DNA from: a virus
Reading direction: 5' to 3' (one strand)
UHGV virus genome: UHGV-0197950
DNA length: 10,010 nucleotides
Positions 218-10,010 of this stretch are shown piece after piece. How positions within the stretch are numbered: position 1 is the stretch's first letter; the number at the start of each line of letters is the position of its first letter. The notes beneath the pieces were generated by a model, which saw nothing but the letters and a program-made list of their open reading frames with translations, did not search any database and was not told where the DNA came from. Made by a program: the position numbers and the translations under genes.

Positions 218-241
218 TAGATGATAGTTATTTATCATCTA
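218..241. repeat. Perfect 9-bp inverted repeat TAGATGATA-N6-TATCATCTA upstream of the integrase gene; candidate recombination-core or regulator-binding site
   Basis: Read directly: 218-226 tagatgata, spacer gttatt, 233-241 tatcatcta (exact reverse complement). Its position upstream of a P4-type int is where att or arm sites are expected. Function is inferred. Confidence 0.35.
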
Positions 242-404: not shown

Positions 405-1643
405 ATGAGCAGCGCAATTCATAGACTTAGCGACACTCTTTTACGAAAATTAAGCGGATCACCAACCACAAAAAACGCCTTTTTTAATGACGGTGGCAAT
501 CTTAGCGTAAGACATTCCACCAGCGGCCTGTTAACCTGGTATTTCACTTACAGGGCCGGAACTGGTAGGCAGGTATCACCGGAACGTCTGAGACTGGGCA
601 ATTATCCCGATCTGAGTCTGAAAGCAGCCAGGGAAAAAGCAGCACAGTGTCGCGCCTGGCTGGCTGAGGGGAAAAATCCGCGCTATGAGCTTAATCGTGC
701 TGTACAGGATGCGTTAGCCCCCGTGACAGTTAAGGAAGCGCTCACTTACTGGCTTGAATCGTATGCAAAGGAAAAGCGCACTGACTACGAATCACTGAAA
801 AGCCGGATCAATAAACACATAATCAGCCAGATTGGCGCTTTGCCGTTGGAAAAATGCGAGCTACGGCACTGGTTGGCATGTTTTGACCAGATGGCAAAGC
901 GAAGCCCAGTATCTGCCGGATTTTTGCTACAGGTATGCAAACAGGCGCTTAAGTACTGCCGAAAACGACGATACGCAATCAGCAACGTTCTTGATGATAT
1001 GGTTGTCGGTGATGTGGGAAAAAAAGCAGAAGTGAGCGAGCGCGTACTAACAAATAAGGAGCTTGGGGAATTACTCCGCGCCCTGGATGACAAAATATTC
1101 CCGCCATACTACAGCGCCCTAATTCGCCTCCTGATTGTTTTTGGATGCCGTACCACTGAGCTAAGGCGCTCTGAGGTGCAGGAGTGGGATTTTAAAGAAA
1201 TGCTCTGGACAGTACCGAAGGAGCACAGCAAAACGAAGGTCGCCATATTCAGGCCAATACCGGAAAGCATTTTGCCGTTCGTCACGCAACTGGTGGAGCA
1301 GAACAGACACACAGGCTTATTGCTTGGTGAACTGAAAGGACAATCTTCGGTAGCAGAGTACGGAAGAACAGCGCACAGACGAATTAATCAAGCCCCCTGG
1401 ACGTTACACGATATCCGGCACACATTTACAACCATGCTGAACGATTTAGGCGTGGATCCGCATATTGTCGAGCAGCTTACAGCCCACCAGATGCCAGGGA
1501 TGCAACGAGTCTATAACCACTCCCGCTACCTTGATGCAAAACGTGATGCTCTTAATCTATGGGTAGACCGTCTCGAGCTTCTCCAGAACAATGATGAAAA
1601 AATCGTTGTTATGACCCCGCGAATTTACCCCCAAAATTCTTGA
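405..1643 (+). CDS. int: Site-specific tyrosine recombinase, P4-family integrase
   Basis: 412-aa ORF, ATG 405, TGA 1641-1643. C-terminal catalytic region has typical tyrosine-recombinase motifs (LHDIRHTFTT...HQMPGMQRVYNHSRYL) and the N-terminal region has the arm-binding/SAM-like organisation typical of P4-like integrases. First gene of the island next to a repeat-rich arm region. Confidence 0.9.
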   Translation: MSSAIHRLSDTLLRKLSGSPTTKNAFFNDGGNLSVRHSTSGLLTWYFTYRAGTGRQVSPERLRLGNYPDLSLKAAREKAAQCRAWLAEGKNPRYELNRAVQDALAPVTVKEALTYWLESYAKEKRTDYESLKSRINKHIISQIGALPLEKCELRHWLACFDQMAKRSPVSAGFLLQVCKQALKYCRKRRYAISNVLDDMVVGDVGKKAEVSERVLTNKELGELLRALDDKIFPPYYSALIRLLIVFGCRTTELRRSEVQEWDFKEMLWTVPKEHSKTKVAIFRPIPESILPFVTQLVEQNRHTGLLLGELKGQSSVAEYGRTAHRRINQAPWTLHDIRHTFTTMLNDLGVDPHIVEQLTAHQMPGMQRVYNHSRYLDAKRDALNLWVDRLELLQNNDEKIVVMTPRIYPQNS

Positions 1644-2062: not shown

Positions 2063-2272
2063 ATGCGTGAAATAAATGAAGATCGCGTAATCCGTGAGGA
2101 TGAATGTCGTAAGTTAACTGGAGTGTGTCGCACTACACGCTACGAACTGGAGAAAAAAGGGAGCTTTCCGTCTCGCCGTAATCTTGGTGGGCGTTCTGTA
2201 GGTTGGCTGCTGTCCGAGGTTATGGAATGGGTTAAAAGCCGGGATCGCATTAATTCAGGTAAGGCAGCGTAA
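2063..2272 (+). CDS. alpA: AlpA-family (Phage_AlpA / MerR-type HTH) transcriptional regulator
   Basis: ~69 aa from ATG 2063: MREINEDRVIREDECRKLTGVCRTTRYELEKKGSFPSRRNLGGRSVGWLLSEVMEWVKSR, matching the AlpA pattern (TG-SR-TIY...G-FP...LG-R-VGW...EV--W). The track ORF starts at 1976 (GTG) but that N-terminal extension lies in AT-rich DNA; the start is uncertain. Stop TAA 2270-2272. Confidence 0.75.
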   Translation: MREINEDRVIREDECRKLTGVCRTTRYELEKKGSFPSRRNLGGRSVGWLLSEVMEWVKSRDRINSGKAA

Positions 2273-2299
2273 AGGGGAGCATATGACATATAAAACAAA

Positions 2300-2319
2300 G
2301 GCGACCGGGGGCGGTCGCC
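2300..2319 (-). terminator. GC-rich perfect hairpin (GGCGACCG-GGGG-CGGTCGCC); possible terminator for leftward transcription from the repressor gene, or for alpA
   Basis: 8-bp perfect stem at 2300-2307 / 2312-2319. On the minus strand it is followed by a U-rich run (CTTTGTTTTA); on the plus strand it lies 28 nt after the alpA stop with no U-tract. Confidence 0.35.
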
Positions 2320-2623
2320 AATGGATACACACTAAACTTGAACGCATCACCAACAATGCCACATTTGCGGCTGGTGGGCAATGTGATCAGTCAGATTTGG
2401 TTCGTTCCAAGGTTTGCAACGAGAGCTTTTTCCTGTGCTCTTTAAGGAATTTCTCAAGAGCAAACGAACAAGGTGCGAATCTTTCTGATTCATGTTCATG
2501 CGCTATATTTTTGCGTCGTCTCTTACGAGTTGGTGATGGTGTTTTGGTTGATTCTGTGTCGCTCATGGTGCTGTCCTGTAAAGCAATGCGCCTGCGTTCC
2601 TCAAACTATGGCGCTGATAGTGG

Positions 2624-2929
2624 CTATTCCTGCTCTTTGACCTTGCGTCGCTGGAGTTCTTCACGCGCGACGGTGACGAGTTGCCCGATCTCCTCGGCGG
2701 CTTTGACTCCGATTTTTTCCACCTGCGCTAGGGCATCGAGCGAAGAAACCAGGAGGTTTTCTCCGCTTCCTTCTGCCTGGCGGCGGGCGATTTCACCGCG
2801 CATGGCGGTTACTATGAATCCGGCGTTGCTTTCACCGTCCAGTTTTACGGATTCCATGCCTTCAATAACATCATGCGGGATCCGAGCTGTCAGTGATTGT
2901 GATTTTGCGTTTTTTGAACCTGTAGCCAT
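2624..2929 (-). CDS. Putative ribbon-helix-helix-type DNA-binding repressor (candidate island immunity/maintenance regulator)
   Basis: 101 aa from ATG (minus) at 2929 with SD GAGAGGA 6 nt upstream: MATGSKNAKSQSLTARIPHDVIEGMESVKLDGESNAGFIVTAMRGEIARRQ..., i.e. an N-terminal beta-strand/helix pattern typical of RHH (Arc/CopG-like) proteins and a charged helical C-terminus. The track start at 2944 is a TTG. Divergent from a region with two palindromic operators. Family assignment is by pattern only. Confidence 0.55.
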   Translation of the reverse strand: MATGSKNAKSQSLTARIPHDVIEGMESVKLDGESNAGFIVTAMRGEIARRQAEGSGENLLVSSLDALAQVEKIGVKAAEEIGQLVTVAREELQRRKVKEQE

Positions 2930-2950
2930 CTGTAATCCTCTCAATGAAAG

Positions 2951-3027
2951 TGTAAGACAATATACACATAAAAAGTCTTACATAAAAGCATTGACATGTA
3001 AGCCACCTATAAATAAAGTTGCTTACA
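2951..3027. promoter_or_regulatory. Divergent control region with two palindromic operators (TGTAAGAC-N16-GTCTTACA and TGTAAGC-N17-GCTTACA) overlapping a TTGACA -35 element
   Basis: Read directly: 2951-2958 tgtaagac / 2975-2982 gtcttaca; 2997-2003 tgtaagc / 3021-3027 gcttaca; TTGACA at 2991-2996 with a -10-like TAAAGT 17 nt downstream (3014-3019) reading towards the + strand gene at 3126. Confidence 0.55.
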
Positions 3028-3125
3028 CCTTGTTAATGCAAGGTGCAGAAACGACGAAACCCCGCACTGTAGGAGCAGTAACGGGGCTTCTAACCACCAA
3101 CGATAGCAAGATTATCGAGGCAGCT

Positions 3126-3329
3126 ATGAGAAATCATACCATACACCCGCAAGGGCGGGACTCGTACAACCTGAATAAATACATCTGGCGTTTTATCGCC
3201 CTGAGCACCGCACAACCGCGCGTGATTCACATCGTGGCCACCAGCGAACAGGAAGCACGCCAGCAATCCCCGGCTGGCTGCGTGATGGTATTCGCCGCCC
3301 GTATTCGTCAGGGGGTGTGCCATGCCTGA
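3126..3329 (+). CDS. Small hypothetical protein (67 aa); first gene of the rightward operon; possibly an Icd-like cell-division-inhibitor-family protein
   Basis: ATG 3126 with GAGG SD 5 nt upstream, in frame with the end of the long 2283-3329 ORF: MRNHTIHPQGRDSYNLNKYIWRFIALSTAQPRVIHIVATSEQEARQQSPAGCVMVFAARIRQGVCHA. The Icd-like label is a recollection, not verified. Confidence 0.45.
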   Translation: MRNHTIHPQGRDSYNLNKYIWRFIALSTAQPRVIHIVATSEQEARQQSPAGCVMVFAARIRQGVCHA

Positions 3330-3648: not shown

Positions 3649-3948
3649 ATGAGAACGTATTTATCTGGCTTGACTGCCAGCGGTTATGCACACCCCCAAA
3701 TTATCCCCGGCGCTATTTATCTGGATAAGAACGGTAACAGAGTAACGGTAAAAGAACTGATGTTTGACCGTGTGTATTTTATCCGTGATGGCTATTCATT
3801 TCTTAGTTCGCTGAACGTGGAGATCTTTATTTGCAGATTCCGGCGGGAAATCCCGACTTCCAGAAATAACCATGTGTCACGTGTGGATGTGGATAAAAAA
3901 CTACAGGAACTGAAAAACATGATTGCCGCGTGGAGAGAGCAGAAATGA
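3649..3948 (+). CDS. Hypothetical protein (99 aa)
   Basis: ATG 3649 preceded by GGGGA. Its stop TGA 3946-3948 overlaps ATG 3945 of the replication gene (ATGA coupling). No motif recognised. Confidence 0.55.
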   Translation: MRTYLSGLTASGYAHPQIIPGAIYLDKNGNRVTVKELMFDRVYFIRDGYSFLSSLNVEIFICRFRREIPTSRNNHVSRVDVDKKLQELKNMIAAWREQK

Positions 3949-5762
3949 AAAAAGCGCCAAATTTAAAACACCAGCCGCGTGACAAAATGACGGAAGTCAT
4001 CATTTTTGCGGGTAGTGATGCGTGGGCACATGCGAAGCAGTGGCAGGAACAGGACGGGCGACTGGCTGGCGATAACGTGCCACCTGTCTGGCTTGGAGAG
4101 CAACAACTTGCCGAACTGGACAACCTGCAAATCGTACCGGACGGACGCTATCGCGTGCGTCTCTACCAGGCGGGGTTATTGCGTCCGGGGCTTGTTAATA
4201 CCATCGGGCAGAAACTGGCAGCGGCAGGTGTCAGGGATGCTGATTATTACCCTGAAGGAATGCACAGCCAGAAACGGGAGAACTGGCGCGAATATCTGGA
4301 ACGTGAACGGGCAGAGCAGGCGGAAAAGAAAAAGGTAGTTGAACTGCCTGTAAAGAAAAAAGAGCGGGTAAAAGACGATAACGCTTCATCACTGGCGCTT
4401 AACCAGATGGGAGCAAGTCAACGCGGCGAAGTTCTCCTGGCACATTATGGCGGTGAACTGGCGATTCATGCTGACTCTGACACTGTTCACCATTACAACG
4501 GCGTTGTATGGGAGCCAGTACAGGATAAAGAATTACAGCGAGCTATGGCACAGATTTTCATTGATGCGGAGATCAGCTATTCGCAGAACGCCATTAAATC
4601 GGCGGTCGATACCATGAAGTTAAGTTTGCCTGTTATGGGGAATACAGCCCGTAACCTGATTGGATTCAGTAACGGGGTATTTGATACCAGAACAGGTAAT
4701 TTTCGGGAGCATAACAAAAACGACTGGTTGTTAATTGCCAGTGAATTACCTTTCAGCCCACCAGCAGAGGGGGAAACGCTGGCAACACATGCGCCGAATT
4801 TCTGGAAGTGGTTACGCCGTTCGGTGGCTGAGAATGACCGCAAGGCGGATCGCGTACTGGCTGCATTATTCATGGTGCTGGCGAACCGGTACGACTGGCA
4901 GTTATTCATTGAGGTAACAGGTCCAGGGGGAAGTGGTAAAAGCGTGATGGCGGAGATTTGCACCATGCTGGCGGGTAAGGTTAATACAGTATCAGCGAGC
5001 ATGAAGGCGCTGGAAGATGCAAGGGAACGCGCGTTAGTGGTTGGCTTTTCGCTGATTATCATGCCGGATATGACCCGCTACGCTGGTGATGGGGCGGGAA
5101 TTAAGGCTATTACAGGCGGTGACAAGGTGGCAATCGACCCAAAACATAAAGCCCCATATTCAACGCGTATCCCGGCAGTAGTGCTGGCGGTTAACAATAA
5201 CGCTATGTCATTCAGTGACCGCAGTGGGGGGATCTCGCGACGTCGGGTGATATTCAATTTTTCGGAAGTTGTACCGGAGAACGAACGCGATTCAATGCTG
5301 GCGGAAAAAATAGAAGGTGAGCTGGCGGTAGTGATTCGTCATCTGCTTACACGGTTTGCTGACCAGGACGAAGCCAGACGCCTTTTATATGAGCAGCAGA
5401 AATCAGAAGAAGCACTCGCGATAAAGCGTGAAGGTGATTCGCTGGTGGACTTCTGCGGCTATCTCATGGCGTCGGTAATGTGTGATGGCCTGTTAGTGGG
5501 TAATGCTGAAATTGTGCCATTCAGCCCGCGCAGGTATCTCTATCATGCCTATCTGGCTTATATGAAGGCACATGGGTTTGGTAAACCTGTAACACTGACG
5601 CGCTTCGGTAAAGATATGCCGGGGGCAATGGCGGAATATGGCAGGGAGTATATGAAACGGAAAACGAAGCACGGTTTGCGTTCAAACGTGACACTGACGG
5701 AGGAATCAGAAGACTGGATGCCATCATGTGTATCGGTCACTAATGACGATAGCAAAAATTAA
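3945..5762 (+). CDS. Replication initiation protein, phage/plasmid primase-helicase family (P-loop NTPase; pri-rep-like)
   Basis: 605 aa from ATG 3945 (SD GGAGAGAG 3932-3939); the track start 3930 is a GTG. Walker A motif GPGGSGKS (EVTGPGGSGKSVMAE) and a downstream hydrophobic stretch plus acidic residues (LVVGFSLIIMPD) consistent with Walker B. Size and position immediately upstream of an iteron origin match satellite/PICI pri-rep genes. Confidence 0.8.
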   Translation: MKKAPNLKHQPRDKMTEVIIFAGSDAWAHAKQWQEQDGRLAGDNVPPVWLGEQQLAELDNLQIVPDGRYRVRLYQAGLLRPGLVNTIGQKLAAAGVRDADYYPEGMHSQKRENWREYLERERAEQAEKKKVVELPVKKKERVKDDNASSLALNQMGASQRGEVLLAHYGGELAIHADSDTVHHYNGVVWEPVQDKELQRAMAQIFIDAEISYSQNAIKSAVDTMKLSLPVMGNTARNLIGFSNGVFDTRTGNFREHNKNDWLLIASELPFSPPAEGETLATHAPNFWKWLRRSVAENDRKADRVLAALFMVLANRYDWQLFIEVTGPGGSGKSVMAEICTMLAGKVNTVSASMKALEDARERALVVGFSLIIMPDMTRYAGDGAGIKAITGGDKVAIDPKHKAPYSTRIPAVVLAVNNNAMSFSDRSGGISRRRVIFNFSEVVPENERDSMLAEKIEGELAVVIRHLLTRFADQDEARRLLYEQQKSEEALAIKREGDSLVDFCGYLMASVMCDGLLVGNAEIVPFSPRRYLYHAYLAYMKAHGFGKPVTLTRFGKDMPGAMAEYGREYMKRKTKHGLRSNVTLTEESEDWMPSCVSVTNDDSKN

Positions 5763-5776
5763 ACTTATGGAATAAC

Positions 5777-6006
5777 TGTTCACCACTGTTCACCCTGTCA
5801 TAAATATTTTTTATATCAGTATATTATAGGGTGAACAGTTATTTATGAACTGTTCACCAAACTATTCACTGTTCACCTTTTTGATTGTTTATTGAGCTTC
5901 AAGGGTGAACAGTGGTGAACAGTTGGTGAATAGTTTTTGTGAAACTGTTCACCCCTTAACATTATGAATTAAAAGATAAAATATCAAAAGGTGAACAGGT
6001 GAAGGG
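5777..6006. repeat. Iteron array / putative replication origin: about 10 copies of TGTTCACC (both orientations) flanking an AT-rich stretch
   Basis: TGTTCACC at 5777, 5787, 5851, 5870, 5946; GGTGAACA at 5830, 5904, 5914, 5990; degenerate copies at 5861, 5925, 5998; AT-rich 5795-5828. Lies immediately after the replication gene stop (5762). Confidence 0.75.
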
Positions 6007-6049
6007 TTAAAACGCAAAAATTTTAATTTACTGCTGTGAGATAAAGCCT

Positions 6050-6295
6050 ATGACAGCGAAGCACATAAAAAAATCACAATCGCACGCCCTTGATTTGACG
6101 GAACACTGGTTAAGGGTGTCGATAAAAATCATCGACCGCAACGCCGGGGAAGGATATGCGAAAGCACATCCCGAACTGATTAGCGCATTCATGACAACGG
6201 CAGCTGCAAACTTTGCCACGCTGACAGAACGGGAGATTGCCGAAGCGGAACAGGTGACAACCATCAACGTTAAAACCGGAGAGCAGACAGCATGA
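6050..6295 (+). CDS. Hypothetical protein (81 aa), translationally coupled to ssb
   Basis: ATG 6050; stop TGA 6293-6295 overlaps ssb ATG 6292 (ATGA). No motif recognised. Confidence 0.5.
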   Translation: MTAKHIKKSQSHALDLTEHWLRVSIKIIDRNAGEGYAKAHPELISAFMTTAAANFATLTEREIAEAEQVTTINVKTGEQTA

Positions 6296-6714
6296 CAGCA
6301 CAGATAGCGGCTTACGGACGGCTGGTGGCTGATCCGCAGTTAAAGACCACCAGCAAGGGTACACAAATGGCGATGGCTAGTATGGCGGTCCCCCTTCCGT
6401 GCAGCCAGGCAGATGACGGAACGGCGATGATGTGGTTATCCGTCCTGGCGTTTGGCAGACAGGCCGACGCACTGGCAAAACACCACAAAGGCGAACTGGT
6501 GAGCGTGGCGGGTAACATGCAGGTAAGCCAGTGGACAGGCCAGAACGGCGAAACGCGGCAGGGCTGGCAGGTTATCGCAGACAGCGTGATCAGTGCGCGA
6601 ACAGCGCGACCGGGCGGCAAAAAAGGCCAGCAGGGGCAGGCCACTGACGCACTGAACAGGGCAAAACAACAGTCGGGGAATGATGATCCGTACGGCGATA
6701 ATATACCGTTTTAA
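6292..6714 (+). CDS. ssb: Single-stranded DNA-binding protein (SSB-like, OB-fold) with acidic C-terminal tip ...DDPYGDNIPF
   Basis: 140 aa; N-terminal region follows the E. coli SSB pattern (IAAYGRLVADPQLKTTSKG... / WLSVLAFGRQADALAKHHKGELVSVAGNMQVSQWTGQNGETRQGWQVIADSV), a Gly/Gln-rich linker, and a C-terminal IPF tail resembling SSB DDDIPF. Confidence 0.8.
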   Translation: MTAQIAAYGRLVADPQLKTTSKGTQMAMASMAVPLPCSQADDGTAMMWLSVLAFGRQADALAKHHKGELVSVAGNMQVSQWTGQNGETRQGWQVIADSVISARTARPGGKKGQQGQATDALNRAKQQSGNDDPYGDNIPF

Positions 6715-6731
6715 ATTCTGCAAACAAAAAG

Positions 6732-6760
6732 ATGCCGGAAAAAAATAGATTTTCCGGCAT
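6732..6760. terminator. Perfect 11-bp-stem hairpin (ATGCCGGAAAA-N7-TTTTCCGGCAT) between the replication and head modules; possible bidirectional terminator or insulator
   Basis: Arms 6732-6742 and 6750-6760 are exact reverse complements; a T-rich run follows on the minus-strand side (CTTTTTGTTTG); 18 nt after the ssb stop. Confidence 0.4.
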
Positions 6761-6925
6761 GCTACATAAATCCCGACCAAAGGAAGTAAATACATTAACA
6801 CGAATTATCAGCACTGAAGTTGTCGCGGCATATTTTATACAACATTGCACTTGGTTGCATGTATTCGCATAGCAGACATCGGTAATAGAATATATTCACA
6901 ATTATTTGTAATGAATGTAAAGAGG

Positions 6926-7972
6926 ATGAGTATGGTTGACTTATATTCGCCTACACAGCTTGTGCAGGTGGCTAATGCTGAAGATGTGCAAAAAAAATTA
7001 AATGCGTTGTTTACCAGTTTGTTTTTCACTCGCTCGGTAATGTTTGAATCGAGAGACATTATTCTTGATACGATCGACGATCCAAATATCCCGATCGCGG
7101 CGTTTTGCTCTCCTATGGTGGGCAGTAAAGTTTCACGAGATGAGGGATACGAATCAAAAACAATTCGCCCTGGCTATATGAAACCGAAAAGCAGCATTGA
7201 TCCAAATAAGTTAGCTGTGCGCCCTGCTGGTGTATCACCTGAGCAATACAATGCTTTTGGAGCGCGTAATATTAAAGTTAAACAGGCGATTGTAAATCAG
7301 GCTAAAGCTATTCGTGCACGTATTGAATGGCTTGCCGTTCAGGCAATCACAACGGGGAAAAATATCATTGAGGGCGATGGTATTGAACGTTATGAGCTGG
7401 ACTGGAATATTAAACCACAAAATATCATCACTCAGTCTGGCGGTGCTGAGTGGTCAGGTAAGGATAAAGAAGCTTTTGATCCAAATGATGATATTGAGAG
7501 CTACGCAGAATTTAGTGAGGGCGTCACTAATATTATCATTATGGGCGGTAATGTATGGAAGAAATACCGTTCATTCAGGGCGATAAAAGAGGCTCTGGAT
7601 ACTCGTCGTGGTTCTAATTCCGAACTGGAAACGGCCCTTAAAGACCTTGGTGATTCGGTGAGTTTTAAAGGGTATATGGGCGATGTTGCGATTGTTGTTT
7701 ACAGCGGGCGTTATACCGACGAGGACGGAACTGAAAAATATTTCCTTGATCCTGATTTGATGGTGCTTGGCAATACGGCTCTTCAGGGGATTGTCGCTTA
7801 TGGCGGTATTCAGGATCCGGAGCTAATCCGGATGGGGCTGACTAAAGCCGAACTTGCACCGAAAAACTATATTGTGCCTGGTGATCCGGCTATTGAATAT
7901 GTGCAGACACATTCAGCACCACAGCCAATACCGGCCCGCATCAATCGTTTTGTTACCGTTCGCATTGGCTAA
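6926..7972 (+). CDS. Major capsid protein, phage lambda gpE family
   Basis: Begins MSMVDLYSPTQLV (lambda gpE begins MSMYTTAQLL) and shares long blocks with gpE as recalled: NIITQSGGAEWSGKDKEAFDPNDDIESYA, LDTRRGSNSELETALKDLG, GDVAIVVYSG, MVLGNT, PGDPA. Start may be ATG 6926 or 6932 (AGAGG abuts 6926). Stop TAA 7970-7972. Confidence 0.9.
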   Translation: MSMVDLYSPTQLVQVANAEDVQKKLNALFTSLFFTRSVMFESRDIILDTIDDPNIPIAAFCSPMVGSKVSRDEGYESKTIRPGYMKPKSSIDPNKLAVRPAGVSPEQYNAFGARNIKVKQAIVNQAKAIRARIEWLAVQAITTGKNIIEGDGIERYELDWNIKPQNIITQSGGAEWSGKDKEAFDPNDDIESYAEFSEGVTNIIIMGGNVWKKYRSFRAIKEALDTRRGSNSELETALKDLGDSVSFKGYMGDVAIVVYSGRYTDEDGTEKYFLDPDLMVLGNTALQGIVAYGGIQDPELIRMGLTKAELAPKNYIVPGDPAIEYVQTHSAPQPIPARINRFVTVRIG

Positions 7973-7981
7973 GGGGGAGCA

Positions 7982-8323
7982 ATGGCTACTCATTACACTG
8001 AACTCATGTCTGGCACTGAAGCACTGGTTACTACGCTGGGGATATTTTCAGCCAATAAAGGGGTAATACCTGCGTTTACGCCACTGATGCAGGAAGATGC
8101 AACTGGTGCGCTAGTGGTATGGGATGGAACGAGCGCAGGCAAAGCGGTTTATGTTTCCGCTGTACAAATCGACACAGCGAAAAAAACACAGGCACAGGTT
8201 TATAAGACAGGTGTTTTAAATGTTGATGCTCTGAACTGGCCTGAGTCTGTAAAAGAACTGTCGGCAAAGGTTGCCGCGTTTGTTGGCTCAGGTATTTCTG
8301 TTCAGCCGCTGGCTCGTGTGTAA
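7982..8323 (+). CDS. Head decoration protein, phage lambda gpD family
   Basis: 113 aa with SD AAGGGGGAG; motifs shared with gpD as recalled: TPLM, LVVWDGT, YKTG, WPE, AAFVGSGISV. Lies immediately downstream of the capsid gene (order E then D, reversed relative to lambda). Confidence 0.8.
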   Translation: MATHYTELMSGTEALVTTLGIFSANKGVIPAFTPLMQEDATGALVVWDGTSAGKAVYVSAVQIDTAKKTQAQVYKTGVLNVDALNWPESVKELSAKVAAFVGSGISVQPLARV

Positions 8324-8334
8324 AGGGGGATACA

Positions 8335-8718
8335 ATGCAGAATCATTACAATGACCTTAAGCCAATTGCCGAAATGATGTATCCGGATCCAGCAGTAGAG
8401 GAATTAAAGGCTATTGCTGACAAAATGCGTTTAAGTGAACGCCTTGTTGATATGAATCAGGTGATGGAACTTACTACCCTTAGCCGTCGCACATTGCTAA
8501 ACCTTGAGGCTCGCGGAGAGTTCCCCGAACGCGTACAGGTTACGGAAGGGCGTAAGGCCTGGTATTTAAGTGAAGTGATCGACTGGATAAACAATATTCC
8601 TCGAGCTTCTGAATATTGCCGCGTACCTGTCCCAAAAAAGCCAGATGCGGCGCTATGCCTCAAGATTGAGCGTGTACGTCGCAATGCACGGGATGGTCGC
8701 TATAAGTTGATTGGTTGA
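8335..8718 (+). CDS. AlpA-type HTH DNA-binding protein with N-terminal extension (127 aa); candidate late/packaging regulator
   Basis: SD AAAGGGGGA; C-terminal half has an AlpA-like HTH (MELTTLSRRTLLNLEARGEFPERVQVTEGRKAWYLSEVIDWINN). Sits between the decoration gene and cos. Confidence 0.7.
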   Translation: MQNHYNDLKPIAEMMYPDPAVEELKAIADKMRLSERLVDMNQVMELTTLSRRTLLNLEARGEFPERVQVTEGRKAWYLSEVIDWINNIPRASEYCRVPVPKKPDAALCLKIERVRRNARDGRYKLIG

Positions 8719-8741: not shown

Positions 8742-8810
8742 GGCGGGTCCTTTCCGGCGATCCGGTAGGCTACGGGGCGGCGACCTCGCGGTTTTTCGCT
8801 ATTTATGAGC
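8742..8810. other. Lambda-type cohesive-end site (cosQ/cosN region); cosN 12-nt GGGCGGCGACCT at 8775-8786
   Basis: Island GGCGGGTCCTTTCCGGCGATCCGGTAGGCTACG|GGGCGGCGACCT|CGCGGTTTTTCGCTATTTATGAG versus lambda right end ...CGGGTCCTTTCCGGTGATCCGACAGGTTACG and left end GGGCGGCGACCTCGCGGGTTTTCGCTATTTATGAA as recalled. Identity falls away after about +35, so the cosB region is different. About 145 bp upstream of a Nu1-like gene, as in lambda. Confidence 0.8.
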
Positions 8811-8818
8811 TTTTTCAG

Positions 8819-8833
8819 GGTGGTGGTGGTGGT
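8819..8833. repeat. (GGT)5 trinucleotide tract followed by TTTGTTGTTTG, inside the cosB-equivalent region
   Basis: Read directly: ggtggtggtggtggt at 8819-8833. Downstream are ACACCAACACACCAACC repeats (8877-8893), loosely complementary in composition. Confidence 0.6.
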
Positions 8834-8919
8834 TTTGTTGTTTGCTCTATCTCCATGAATAAAAAGGGAAAGATAACACCAACACACCAACCTGAAACCT
8901 TGACCAAGTTGGGATATTG

Positions 8920-9462
8920 ATGAAATCGCACCTGATGAACAAAAAAACCATGGCGCAAAGCTGCCGGGTAAGTGCTACAGCATTCGACAAGTGGGGAGTG
9001 ACTCCCGTTGAACGTAAAGGCCGTGAGGCGTTTTATGATGTTGCCAGCGTGATAGACAATAGGGTTAACAATGCAATTAGCCAGCTTACAAACGACAAAG
9101 GCGAGATTGATGATGATGAACTCTTACGAGTCAGGATCAGATTACTGACAGCACAGGCGGAGGCGCAGGAACTTAAAAACGAGCGCGATCGCGGTGACGT
9201 GATTGATACAGAGTTTTGCATGTACGCGCTTTCAAAACTGGCGAGTCAGATTTCATCAATCATGGACAGCCTCCCGCTTACTATGCAAAGGAGCTTCCCA
9301 CAGATGACCCCCGTCATGCTGGATGGCCTGAAAAAAGAAGTTGTCAGAGCCTGTAACGCATGCACAAAACTTGATGAAAACATCCCGCGAATGCTGTCCG
9401 ATTATCTGATGGAAACTACCGGAAATGTGCCTGATAAGTTTCAGCCGGATAAAGACAAGTAA
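8920..9462 (+). CDS. Terminase small subunit, lambda Nu1-like
   Basis: Product aligns by eye with lambda Nu1: N-terminus ...NKKTMAQSCRVSATAFDKWGVTPVERKGREAFYDVASVI versus NKKQLADIFGASIRTIQNWQEQGMPVLRGGGKGNEVLYDSAAVI; C-terminal part RLLTAQAEAQELKNERDRGDVIDTEFCMYALSKLASQISSIMDSLPLTMQRSFPQ versus RLTRAQADAQELKNARDSAEVVETAFCTFVLSRIAGEIASILDGLPLSVQRRFPE. Start ambiguous (TTG 8917, ATG 8920, ATG 8935). No TerL gene follows. Confidence 0.85.
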   Translation: MKSHLMNKKTMAQSCRVSATAFDKWGVTPVERKGREAFYDVASVIDNRVNNAISQLTNDKGEIDDDELLRVRIRLLTAQAEAQELKNERDRGDVIDTEFCMYALSKLASQISSIMDSLPLTMQRSFPQMTPVMLDGLKKEVVRACNACTKLDENIPRMLSDYLMETTGNVPDKFQPDKDK

Positions 9463-9698: not shown

Positions 9699-10010
9699 AT
9701 GGAGGCCATGACCATGACCATGACCATGACCGAGACCGAAGCGCTCGGGATAATCCGCAGTATTACCGGAATCAGCCAGCAGGCTGGCGAACAGGAGGCC
9801 ACGCAGCCGGACAGCGTGATAGCCGAAAATTACGCGCGTGTTGTTGCTGAGGTGATGCGCCGTGATGGTATTGAGCTTAACGGCGTGGATATGCGCAACA
9901 TACGAACCAGAGTCCTTGAGTTGCTGGCATACCGTCGCCGTTCTCAACAACGGAGGGAGAGCGCGAAAAGTACTTACCAGTGGAAGAAGCCGGAACGACT
10001 GCGGCGGTAA
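9699..10010 (+). CDS. Hypothetical protein (~103 aa) beginning in a hexanucleotide repeat (MEAMTMTMTMTETE...)
   Basis: ORF ends TAA 10008-10010. Candidate starts are ATG 9699 (SD AAGGAGGA 9679-9686) or ATG 9714 (SD GGAGG 9701-9705). The track start 9624 lies in probable non-coding DNA. No confident family assignment. Confidence 0.5.
   Translation: MEAMTMTMTMTETEALGIIRSITGISQQAGEQEATQPDSVIAENYARVVAEVMRRDGIELNGVDMRNIRTRVLELLAYRRRSQQRRESAKSTYQWKKPERLRR
9707..9730 (+). repeat. (CATGAC)4 hexanucleotide tandem repeat, with a degenerate fifth unit to 9736, at the 5' end of the last gene
   Basis: Read directly: catgac x4 at 9707-9730 then cgagac; encodes MT dipeptide repeats and provides four in-frame ATG codons. 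Confidence 0.7.

Follow-up and report, generated by a model that had tools for sequence, protein, structure and literature searches.

A PICI-lineage major capsid and decoration gene pair in a cos-type satellite island between cspD and clpS of Escherichia coli

Among the late genes of Gram-negative PICIs, those for capsid proteins are the most frequent, being present in 21 of 29 reference elements (PMC10111431), and SatelliteFinder counts "capsid morphogenesis" among the core components of a PICI (PMC10085698). A first-pass annotation of the island studied here supposed that such an element would normally rely on helper structural proteins, which the frequency of capsid genes in the reference PICIs contradicts. 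Satellite homologues of lambda gpE and gpD in E. coli PICIs are already known, from the literature since 2018 and from the PDB since 2008. EcCICFT073 carries such a pair, c1499 and c1500, described in 2018 (PMC6092414), and c1499 is the protein of PDB 3BQW, a solved HK97-fold structure. Deletion of c1499 or c1500 in EcCICFT073 left transfer by the resident helper unchanged and did not relieve interference with lambda, and the c1499::cat island in fact transferred better (PMC6092414). EcCICFT073 DNA packaged with lambda was phage-sized only, with no PICI-monomer band, and no size redirection was seen for E. coli PICIs (PMC6092414). The idea that the lack of a phenotype was an artefact of the c1501::tetA marker was considered and rejected. 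The recombineering arms put tetA exactly after the c1501 stop codon, and c1501 is therefore intact in the knock-out strains.

The stretch of DNA analyzed here, called the window, is 10,010 nucleotides long, and its island can be compared with several described satellites. EcCIIHE3034 and EcCI18098 (PMC6092414) have the same attC and att core, ATGATAGTTAT, a similar size (about 10.5 kb) and the same gene order, including the major capsid protein (MCP) gene followed by the decoration protein (Dec) gene. Their integrase (99.8%), AlpA (100%), TerS (87%) and single-strand DNA-binding protein (SSB; 89%) are close in sequence to those of the window. However, Pri-Rep has only 48% identity, the MCP and Dec alleles are different (55% and 54% identical), and the small ORF upstream of MCP is absent from the window island. 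The third cassette gene also differs, encoding an AlpA-like HTH protein in the window island and a c1501-like protein in IHE3034. Both of these cspD-clpS elements showed poor or no transfer with resident prophages (PMC6092414). EcCICFT073 belongs to the same PICI family and has its homologous pair at the same position, E then D, with a lambda-type cosN just downstream. However, c1499 and c1500 are 55% and 54% identical to the MCP and Dec of the window, Rpp takes the place of a full TerS, there are two cos sites, the attC is ycfD-phoQ, and c1501, which resembles the Nu3 C-terminus, replaces the AlpA-like gene. The helper-embedded "11capE" PICI (PMC10111431) has essentially the same MCP-Dec-AlpA-like-TerS cassette, at 95-97% nucleotide identity, but has a different integrase and lies inside gene E of a helper prophage, whereas the window island is chromosomal.

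Two other kinds of satellite also encode a coat protein or a homologue of one. The cf-PICIs (EcCIEDL933; bioRxiv 10.1101/2022.09.08.507074) share the int-alpA-pri-rep backbone and likewise encode a satellite MCP and a TerS. Unlike the window island, they have genes for TerL, HNH, portal, protease and head-tail connectors as well, and make their own small capsids. In published trees, the capsid and TerS genes set PICIs apart from cf-PICIs (PMC10085698). SaPIbov5 is a cos-type satellite whose Ccm (PMC8569155) is a divergent homologue of the helper HK97-fold coat protein, encoded without portal or protease, as in the window. However, Ccm belongs to another MCP family and has no partner decoration protein, and its role is proven: it forms pentamers that force small isometric capsids.

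Identity and boundaries of the island

The features of the window outside the capsid pair are as follows.

221..231, plus strand: attL core ATGATAGTTAT, the left end of the island; published att core of cspD-clpS PICIs
405..1643, plus strand: tyrosine integrase (PF00589 and PF13356), 99.8% identical to the EcCIIHE3034 integrase
2063..2272, plus strand: AlpA regulator (PF05930, E=4.8e-16), 100% identical to EcCIIHE3034 AlpA; the ORF start is possibly as early as 1976
3945..5762, plus strand: Pri-Rep primase/helicase with D5_N, DUF5906 and Pox_D5 domains, 48% identical to EcCICFT073 Pri-Rep
5774..6008, no strand assigned: probable replication origin, about 11 iterons GGTGAACAGT in both orientations, immediately 3' of pri-rep
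6292..6714, plus strand: single-strand DNA-binding protein (PF00436, E=1.7e-15)
8335..8718, plus strand: second AlpA-like HTH protein, the third cassette gene (PF05930, E=1.4e-8; PHROG 2790, E=1.8e-48)
8744..8808, plus strand: lambda-type cos site, 60 of 65 bases as in lambda cos
8917..9462, plus strand: Nu1-family terminase small subunit (TerS), likely ATG 8920 (PHROG 57, E=6e-52; PF07471, E=1e-22)
9726..10010, plus strand: last island gene (PHROG 1561), with its stop codon ending at the final base of the window

The first-pass annotation did not list the lambda-type cos site or the Nu1-type TerS gene. It had called the element a satellite, and this agrees with the presence of int, alpA and pri-rep and the absence of tail and lysis genes. 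Almost certainly, the element is a classical Gram-negative PICI of the EcCI family of E. coli, 10.5 kb long, cos-type and not capsid-forming, and the window contains nearly the whole of it. The island has the properties of a classical PICI in several respects. First, it is a small island between direct att repeats at a PICI-specific chromosomal site. Secondly, int is leftmost, an AlpA regulator is present and the genes run unidirectionally rightward. Third, Pri-Rep has an iteron origin immediately 3' of its gene, a position that agrees with the PICI ori described in PMC6092414. Fourth, tail, lysis, portal, TerL and protease genes are absent. Lastly, the island carries elements for hijacking helper packaging, here a helper-type cosN and a Nu1-family TerS.

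The island lies at the published PICI attC between cspD and clpS. E. coli W619 is 99.9% identical to the window and places its ends. The core ATGATAGTTAT occurs once in the window and twice in W619, where the two copies are 10,468 bp apart and are flanked by cspD/yljB and clpS. The attR core is about 685 bp past the end of the window, followed by clpS, and no gene is annotated in the 685 bp between. Because the island ends at this attR, it is a complete 10.5-kb classical PICI and neither a capsid-forming PICI nor a prophage. The proposal that further head genes lie beyond position 10010, as in a capsid-forming satellite, is refuted by the same boundary; in W619 the sequence downstream, which the first-pass annotation had asked to be inspected, has no portal, protease, scaffold or TerL gene annotated before the island ends. 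In total, 81 genomes share at least 80% of the window.

Searches for genes of other elements were negative. The cf-PICI genes (TerL, portal, head maturation protease and head-tail connectors) were found neither in the window nor in the 685 bp to attR. Pfam, PHROG and NCBIfam scans of the annotated ORFs gave no Psu, Delta, Sid or Ash/epsilon of P4-like satellites, and an Rfam scan of the window for P4-type CI or seqA RNAs had no match at the gathering threshold. A lambda-like (defective) prophage was also considered and rejected, since the true phage contexts compared have a contiguous Nu1-A-W-B-C-D-E-FI-FII-tail module and lysis genes and the window does not. Because the window holds MCP, Dec and TerS genes and stops at a gene boundary, it could be read as the left part of a capsid-forming PICI or defective lambda-like prophage with portal, protease and TerL genes downstream, a reading of negligible probability given that the searches gave no homologues of TerL, portal, protease or connectors, that the 685 bp to attR in W619 have no annotated gene, and that in six cassette-bearing E. 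coli genomes the island stops within a few hundred bp of its last gene, at an att core or at a gene of the host or helper.

The capsid and decoration genes

The two genes of the capsid pair, designated E' and D', are as follows.

6932..7972, plus strand: PICI-lineage MCP (E'), gpE family, HK97 fold, 346 aa (PF03864, PHROG 29, 3BQW match)
7982..8323, plus strand: PICI-lineage head decoration protein (Dec, D'), gpD/SHP family, 113 aa (PF02924, PHROG 49)

The MCP matches Pfam PF03864 (Phage_cap_E) with E=4.8e-41 over profile positions 4-327 of 329 and PHROG 29 ("major head protein") with E=1.9e-89. Among solved structures, PDB 3BQW is closest to it in sequence (E=1e-121), and two lambda capsid entries, 7VI9 and 7SJ5, come next. 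Aligned along its whole length, the MCP has 42% identity to lambda gpE and is colinear with it; the only insertions or deletions specific to the clade are +3 aa in the N-arm and +1 aa. Beyond these, the PICI MCPs have no clade-specific domain changes that would hint at another T number, which leaves this comparison uninformative. A poor, low-confidence AlphaFold model of the MCP (pLDDT 59.7), made from an alignment of 18 sequences, was used to confirm the fold and not fine structure; its top fold matches were 3BQW and lambda gpE (TM 0.65-0.72). The first-pass annotation had described a full-length gpE-family MCP and would have abandoned this had profile searches given no gpE/HK97-fold homology; the Pfam, PHROG and 3BQW matches support it. 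It had placed the ORF at 6926-7972. The gene is real, but its start is more likely ATG 6932 than 6926, judging from the sequence AGAGG at 6921-6925, which sits 0 nt from 6926 and 6 nt from ATG 6932, and from the RefSeq and orthologue starts, which are equivalent to 6932.

By profile match, Dec is a member of the gpD/SHP fold family. It matches PF02924 (HDPD) with E=2.3e-15 and PHROG 49 ("head decoration") with E=1.2e-26, and its solved-structure matches are phage 21 SHP and lambda gpD (1TD0, 1TD3 and 7VII). It is 40% identical to lambda gpD. The PICI Dec proteins share an N-terminal arm motif and a C-terminal extension, both of which are absent from phage gpD/SHP. In the island the order is E then D, with 9 nt between the genes, whereas in lambda D (5747-6079) precedes E (6135-7160). 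A gpD-family protein in this reversed order had been noted from the sequence, and the profiles and lambda coordinates agree with it. Also as noted then, no homologue of portal, protease or scaffold was found anywhere in the window; a tblastn search of the window gave no scaffold like Nu3, gpC or c1501.

The late module is a portable cassette that runs E' (MCP), D' (decoration), AlpA-like gene, cos and Nu1-like TerS. All of the window-type cassettes examined have an AlpA-like HTH gene after Dec. At 8775-8786 the cohesive ends of cosN, GGGCGGCGACCT, match lambda exactly, and the cos flanks share 92% of their bases with lambda over 65 bp, while the cosB-equivalent downstream of the island cosN differs from that of lambda. 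The protein families and fold of E', D' and TerS are those of lambda gpE, gpD and Nu1, and TerS has 37% identity to Nu1 over residues 3-180. In addition, cos and Nu1 are downstream of D' in the island and not at the start of the module as in lambda, and the island has no A, W, B, C, Nu3, FI or FII.

Clade, selection and spread of the cassette

The wider comparison drew on encoding contigs and E. coli genome matches, since GTDB genomes gave only four related loci, and the head genes of the CFT073 lambdoid prophage served as reference sequences. Our analysis adds three observations: a PICI-specific capsid clade, a fixed E then D order and strong purifying selection. A phylogeny of the MCP against phage gpE, proposed as a check in the first-pass annotation, placed all PICI-context MCPs in one deep clade apart from all phage-context gpE. 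E' and D' belong to this PICI-specific clade, in which the order is always E then D, and the two genes always change allele together.

E' and D' are very probably functional and under selection. In a set of seven islands, taken from E. coli and four further genera and free of stop codons in these genes, dN/dS was 0.014-0.25 for MCP and 0.07-0.29 for Dec, values that are rough upper or lower guides because dS is saturated in most between-genus pairs. The capsid and decoration ORFs were intact in every island examined, from E. coli and six other genera, and no other cassette protein is as well conserved between genera as the MCP (79-86%, versus 54-56% for TerS). In the protein database, clusters of full-length, near-identical (98-99%) MCPs have 643 and 1,275 members, and the largest truncated cluster has 32.

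Among 5,426 complete genomes of E. coli, about 395 carry the exact cassette, a count that includes helper-embedded PICIs inside prophage gene E. It is annotated in hundreds of RefSeq genomes. Sample ERZ28600228 contains a lambda-E/PICI-E' chimera, which may be either a true recombinant or an artefact of assembly. The window-type cassette (95-97% nucleotide identity) is located inside gene E of lambda-like prophages in helper-embedded PICIs; this was the case in three of five sampled E. coli genomes with a context other than that of the window, and the helper-embedded cassette is also present in Cedecea and Kosakonia. It occurs on backbones with three different integrases or replicases. Some islands have additional head genes. 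CFT-type islands add c1501, a match (E=9e-10) to the C-terminal scaffold end of lambda-like gpC/Nu3, and in a Lelliottia PICI, Dec is followed by a full S49 protease/scaffold, with a head-closure protein encoded as well.

Possible roles of E' and D'

The overall explanation we find most plausible, though held tentatively, is that of a classical cos-type PICI with a lambda-derived E'/D' cassette that acts in the following way. The helper would be a lambda-like cos phage, because all elements of the late module derive from a lambda-like head and packaging module. Upon helper induction, AlpA would turn on the rightward operon and the island would excise and replicate. The PICI TerS would bind the island's own cosB and bring the helper TerL (gpA) to the lambda-identical cosN. 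E' would form shells on the helper portal, scaffold and protease, alone or mixed with helper gpE, and the cognate D' would cement the E' shells after expansion, giving island capsids independent of the helper coat protein. Helper gpE would be able to stand in for E' under laboratory conditions, which may be the reason why the knock-outs of the sister allele had no phenotype. We infer all of these steps from lambda biology and the EcCICFT073 literature. The compatibility of E' with helper Nu3/C is an assumption, because the window has no scaffold-like gene and E' is so divergent from lambda gpE; against the helper E fragments in two embedded islands, E' is 41-45% identical. That E' and D' are structural parts of the capsids of transducing particles is, as a claim by itself, possible and made with reserve.

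A further reading, which we regard as doubtful, is that the E'-D' pair, with the c1501/Nu3-like or protease-scaffold additions of sister islands, marks a class of "semi-capsid-forming" PICIs. In such particles the shell would consist of coat and cement proteins of the satellite, with portal and scaffold taken from the helper. This shell might be of reduced size or might withstand the interference that the island itself exerts, and in function the element would stand between classical PICIs and cf-PICIs. Knock-outs of the published kind would miss such a role, because helper gpE would be redundant with lambda or phi80 in laboratory strains. The question raised is why strong purifying selection acts on the "late" gene found most often in Gram-negative PICIs when it has no known phenotype. 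Given the clade, the reversed order, the co-varying third gene, the scaffold-like and protease additions and the location in gene E, this question becomes more testable with the right helper.

The location in gene E suggests another role, as proposed in PMC10111431. The cassette may have evolved mainly in helper-embedded PICIs that split gene E, where E' would supply coat protein or hedge against imprecise or late excision, and in the chromosomal cspD-clpS island it would be a passenger acquired by module exchange. The gene E insertions in E. coli, Cedecea and Kosakonia, and the modularity seen across the three kinds of backbone, are consistent with this. Nevertheless, we consider a backup copy unlikely for several reasons. 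CFT-type cassettes are mostly in chromosomal PICIs, and purifying selection is just as strong in chromosomal islands. An Edwardsiella HE-PICI located in the portal gene, not in gene E, still has E' and D'. In addition, a spare E would need no divergent Dec of its own, and E' is too divergent from lambda gpE (42% identity) to count as a spare copy.

Redirection of capsid size, as by SaPIbov5 Ccm, is quite unlikely. The first-pass annotation had suggested it, with an island coat protein forming capsids sized for a small genome on helper portal, protease and scaffold. E' would here occupy specific capsomers such as pentons, or form whole small shells that fit one copy of the island and shut out the helper genome. 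Ccm is a precedent for a satellite coat homologue that takes the pentamers and forces small isometric capsids (PMC8569155), and PmCI172, which has a gene for a capsid homologue, also produces small capsids (PMC6092414). However, DNA of EcCICFT073, which has the sister allele, was phage-sized only with lambda, deletion of c1499 did not relieve interference, and the PICI MCPs have no domain-level change relative to gpE. The marked EcCICFT073 islands in which small capsids were looked for were either enlarged by tetA or lacked c1499 and thus differed from the unaltered island, a point which favors redirection to some degree.

It is improbable that E' and/or D' serve to poison the assembly or stabilization of helper capsids, or that they are decoys for some process that senses capsids. 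The assembly of helper capsids is a common target of satellites (reviewed in PMC6893505), and relief in single knock-outs could be masked by dominant interference based on Rpp/TerS (PMC6739421). However, the knock-outs gave no detectable relief, and a pure poison would need neither a full-length, highly conserved shell protein nor a co-evolving cementing protein.

Lastly, the only published knock-outs gave no phenotype, as would be expected if the capsid and decoration genes were functionless remnants of a captured phage module. Such decay is very improbable, since every island examined, in E. coli and in six further genera, has intact ORFs, dN/dS lies far below 1, the clade is deep and PICI-specific with a fixed gene order, and the clusters of full-length, near-identical MCPs have more than 1,900 members.

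Boundaries and gene content of the island

The element is a complete classical Gram-negative phage-inducible chromosomal island (PICI) for several reasons. First, an 11-bp core, ATGATAGTTAT, lies at window positions 221-231 and recurs 10,468 bp downstream in E. coli W619, about 685 bp beyond the window end. Secondly, W619 carries the island at 99.9% identity to the window, flanked by cspD/yljB and clpS, the sole indel being two GGT units at 8819-8824. The same att core and cspD-clpS site are listed for EcCIIHE3034 (10.5 kb) and EcCI18098 in Table S1 of Fillol-Salom et al. 2018 (PMC6092414). Third, the window Int and AlpA are 99.8% and 100% identical, respectively, to those of EcCIIHE3034. A prophage reading was rejected, since the island is bounded by att cores at a published PICI site. 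The first-pass annotation had allowed for further head genes beyond the window; these are refuted, as the island closes at the second core copy and no gene is annotated in W619 between the window end and that copy.

Features of the window. The genes are co-directional, except for the YlcI/YnfO-family gene on the minus strand.
405-1643: int
2063-2272: alpA
2624-2929, minus strand: YlcI/YnfO-family gene
3126-3329: Icd-like gene
Between the Icd-like gene and pri-rep: DUF4222 gene
3945-5762: pri-rep, D5-type
5774-6008: likely replication origin, directly after pri-rep; about 11 GGTGAACAGT iterons, closely packed and in both orientations
Between pri-rep and ssb: small ORF
6292-6714: ssb
6932-7972: major capsid protein (MCP, E') ORF, 346 aa
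7982-8323: decoration protein (Dec, D') ORF, 113 aa
8335-8718: AlpA-like ORF
8917-9462: terminase small subunit gene (TerS, Nu1')
Annotated start 9726, ending exactly at base 10010: last small ORF

A 348-aa plus-strand ORF at 2283-3329, which overlaps the YlcI/YnfO-family and Icd-like genes and is unannotated in RefSeq, is most likely spurious. A perfect (CCATGA)x4.3 hexanucleotide repeat at 9706-9737, just upstream of or overlapping the annotated start of the last gene, is a possible slippage-prone tract; in the longer ORF, from 9624, it would be translated as an MTMTMT run.

The capsid cassette and packaging module

The claims that the island encodes a full-length gpE-like MCP and a gpD-like decoration protein were both borne out by profile searches. 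The MCP matches virtually the entire Pfam Phage_cap_E profile (E=4.8e-41) and PHROG 29 "major head protein" (E=1.9e-89), and is 42% identical to lambda gpE over gpE residues 1-341. Dec matches HDPD, the gpD family (E=2.3e-15), and PHROG 49, and is 40% identical to lambda gpD over 78 residues. The order E' then D' is indeed the reverse of that in lambda, because lambda has D (5747-6079) ahead of E (6135-7160). Position 6932 is a better choice of MCP start than 6926, judging by Shine-Dalgarno spacing, RefSeq annotation and orthologue N-termini. Two database entries (P0005, 463 aa; P0081, 470 aa) have Phage_cap_E and HDPD fused in a single ORF; either translation running past the MCP stop codon into Dec or an error in sequencing may account for this.

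A separate transcription signal may serve the cassette. A weak sigma-70-like site, TTCGCA-16-TAGAAT (6864-6891), lies about 40 bp 5' of the MCP start within a 218-bp AT-rich gap, and the count of promoter-like sites was not above shuffle expectation. A hairpin with an 11-bp stem directly follows ssb (6732-6760), with a T-run on the minus strand only.

The third cassette gene, the window's second AlpA-type gene, starts 11 nt past Dec. Every island examined that has the window-type MCP/Dec allele also has this gene (64-72% identity across genera), which may act in late regulation, as a second excisionase or as an accessory factor for cos. In islands of the EcCICFT073 type, c1501 fills this slot instead. 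This gene (10584-10997 in the EcCICFT073 locus) was without an assigned function in Table S2 of the 2018 paper (PMC6092414). Its product looks like a mini-scaffold by sequence, because it matches the C-terminal ~80 residues of a lambda-like gpC/Nu3 protease-scaffold (blastp 37%, E=9e-10); it also matches PHROG 53 positions 495-567. In a Lelliottia PICI, Dec is followed by a complete S49 protease/scaffold gene (11409-12752), and a head-closure (Hc1) gene lies near alpA (5117-5518). No counterpart of c1501, the S49 protease/scaffold or Hc1 was found in the window.

Between the AlpA-like gene and TerS, at 8775-8786, is an exact lambda cosN, GGGCGGCGACCT, omitted from the first-pass annotation. 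The 65 bp around it match lambda cos (-31 to +34) at 92% identity and the sequence diverges beyond; therefore the island's cosB equivalent differs from that of lambda. TerS, likewise omitted from that annotation, aligns with Nu1 over its whole length (37% identity, residues 3-180), and by analogy its C-terminal part would be the gpA-binding region. The cosB-equivalent region contains a (GGT)5 tract at 8819-8833, two units shorter in W619, a twofold ACACCAAC repeat at 8876-8891 and a 13-nt inverted repeat (8813-8825 / 8885-8897); the repeats downstream of cosN (within 8744-8897) are candidate TerS binding sites. The late module (E', D', AlpA-like gene, cos and Nu1') is thus the head and packaging module of lambda in miniature, with its parts rearranged, and this makeup points to a lambda-like cos phage as the helper.

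Distribution and a PICI-specific lineage

At least 80% of the whole window is present in 81 of 5,426 complete E. coli genomes. The MCP-Dec pair, at a coverage of at least 80%, is present in approximately 395, and in 366 of these the nucleotide identity is 95% or more. Genomic context was sampled in five: one is the same cspD-clpS island, one is an abgR-smrA PICI with a different replicase, and three are helper-embedded PICIs inside gene E of lambda-like prophages, corresponding to the "11capE" type of PMC10111431. The cassette also occurs in Superficieibacter, Kluyvera, Cedecea and Kosakonia (79-86% MCP identity); in the latter two it again sits inside the E gene of a prophage.

The window's capsid cassette is shared by helper-embedded PICIs of E. 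coli 99RCEF, EP91A and Res13-Lact-PEB21-38-A, which carry different cargo beside alpA or downstream of TerS: DUF2971, a SWIM zinc finger, a TIR-domain protein and a protein of the "abortive infection family". An internal stop interrupts the PICI TerS of 99RCEF, in which MCP and Dec are intact. A 4,432-bp ENA metagenome scaffold encodes a chimera, P0046, whose first ~215 residues are lambda gpE (98% nucleotide identity with lambda) and whose residues from ~220 to 342 come from window-type PICI MCP (95% nucleotide identity), followed by a PICI Dec and AlpA-like gene. The crossover is in a shared KLDTRRGSNSELETA motif, where the longest exact lambda-window match is 11 nt, and P0046 could be a true helper-satellite recombinant or an assembly chimera.

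Protein-database matches to the MCP split into two groups, at 50-99% and at no more than 43% identity. In the first, all members with context examined (the window, CFT073, IHE3034, four further PICI-context islands, an Edwardsiella island in a portal gene and a Lelliottia island at fis) are in a PICI or helper-embedded PICI, with Dec directly downstream of MCP. In the second, all members examined sit in the canonical Nu1-A-W-B-C-D-E phage module. A midpoint-rooted neighbor-joining tree of the MCP cleanly divides the two groups. PICI MCPs differ from phage gpE only by a 3-residue N-arm insertion and a 1-residue insertion elsewhere; PICI Dec proteins have a common N-terminal motif of their own and a C-terminal "SVQPLA" extension.

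Possible function of the capsid genes

The element belongs to a published family and is typical of it; the capsid-gene feature has already been reported from a sister island, with a solved structure and genetic tests. EcCICFT073 and EcCIIHE3034 have the same MCP-then-Dec layout; the window MCP is 55% identical to c1499 and Dec is 54% identical to c1500. Among solved structures, PDB 3BQW ("putative capsid protein of prophage (E. coli CFT073)") ranks first as a match for the window MCP, and it is c1499 itself. Capsid genes are the commonest late gene of Gram-negative PICIs (21 of 29 reference elements) and dispensable for transfer (Williams laboratory, PMC10111431), and SatelliteFinder treats "capsid morphogenesis" as a core component of Proteobacteria PICIs (PMC10085698). 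The first-pass observation stands, and its interpretation is partly supported. The remaining interest is the function of PICI capsid genes. To our knowledge, the allele group with the AlpA-like third gene is a variant without a separate study.

A structural role for E' and D' in island-carrying particles is the reading we favor, tentatively and at somewhat under an even chance, for several reasons. First, the MCP is a full-length, conserved shell protein. Secondly, it is paired with a cementing protein that co-evolves with it and has an N-arm of its own, an arrangement that makes sense if threefold sites are built by E' and not gpE. Third, sister islands add assembly factors (c1501; the Lelliottia protease/scaffold and head-closure protein). 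Drawing on lambda biology and EcCICFT073 work on AlpA activation and cos/TerS hijacking (PMC6092414, PMC6739421), the helper would activate AlpA, and the island would excise and replicate from the iteron origin (5774-6008). PICI TerS would then bind its own cosB, bringing helper gpA to the lambda-identical cosN, and E' and D' would form or contribute to the shell, using helper portal, scaffold and protease.

Our caution reflects published results. In EcCICFT073, island transfer was unaffected by deletion of c1499 or c1500 (Fillol-Salom et al. 2018, PMC6092414), and island DNA packaged with lambda was phage-sized (PMC6092414); Dokland's review gives the same account (PMC6893505). As a caveat, the marked islands in these tests were either tetA-enlarged or without c1499. 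Marker damage to c1501 as a confounder was ruled out, as the tetA marker left c1501 undisrupted.

Among rival explanations, E' and D' may serve as a backup where an embedded island interrupts helper gene E, which is the context in three of the five sampled genomes; the window itself lies at cspD-clpS. Ccm-like size redirection (PMC8569155) is a second rival, to be weighed with the phage-sized packaging. An interference role is a third; neither c1499 nor c1500 deletion restored lambda plaquing (PMC6092414). Lastly, E' and D' may be a relic, but the MCP and Dec genes are clearly maintained by selection despite no laboratory phenotype. Both are intact in all seven islands compared, with dN far below dS (approximate dN/dS, dS often being saturated, of 0.014-0.25 for MCP and 0.07-0.29 for Dec). 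Between genera, the MCP is the best-conserved cassette protein, and near-identical (98-99%) full-length MCP clusters have 643 and 1,275 members, against 32 in the largest truncated cluster.
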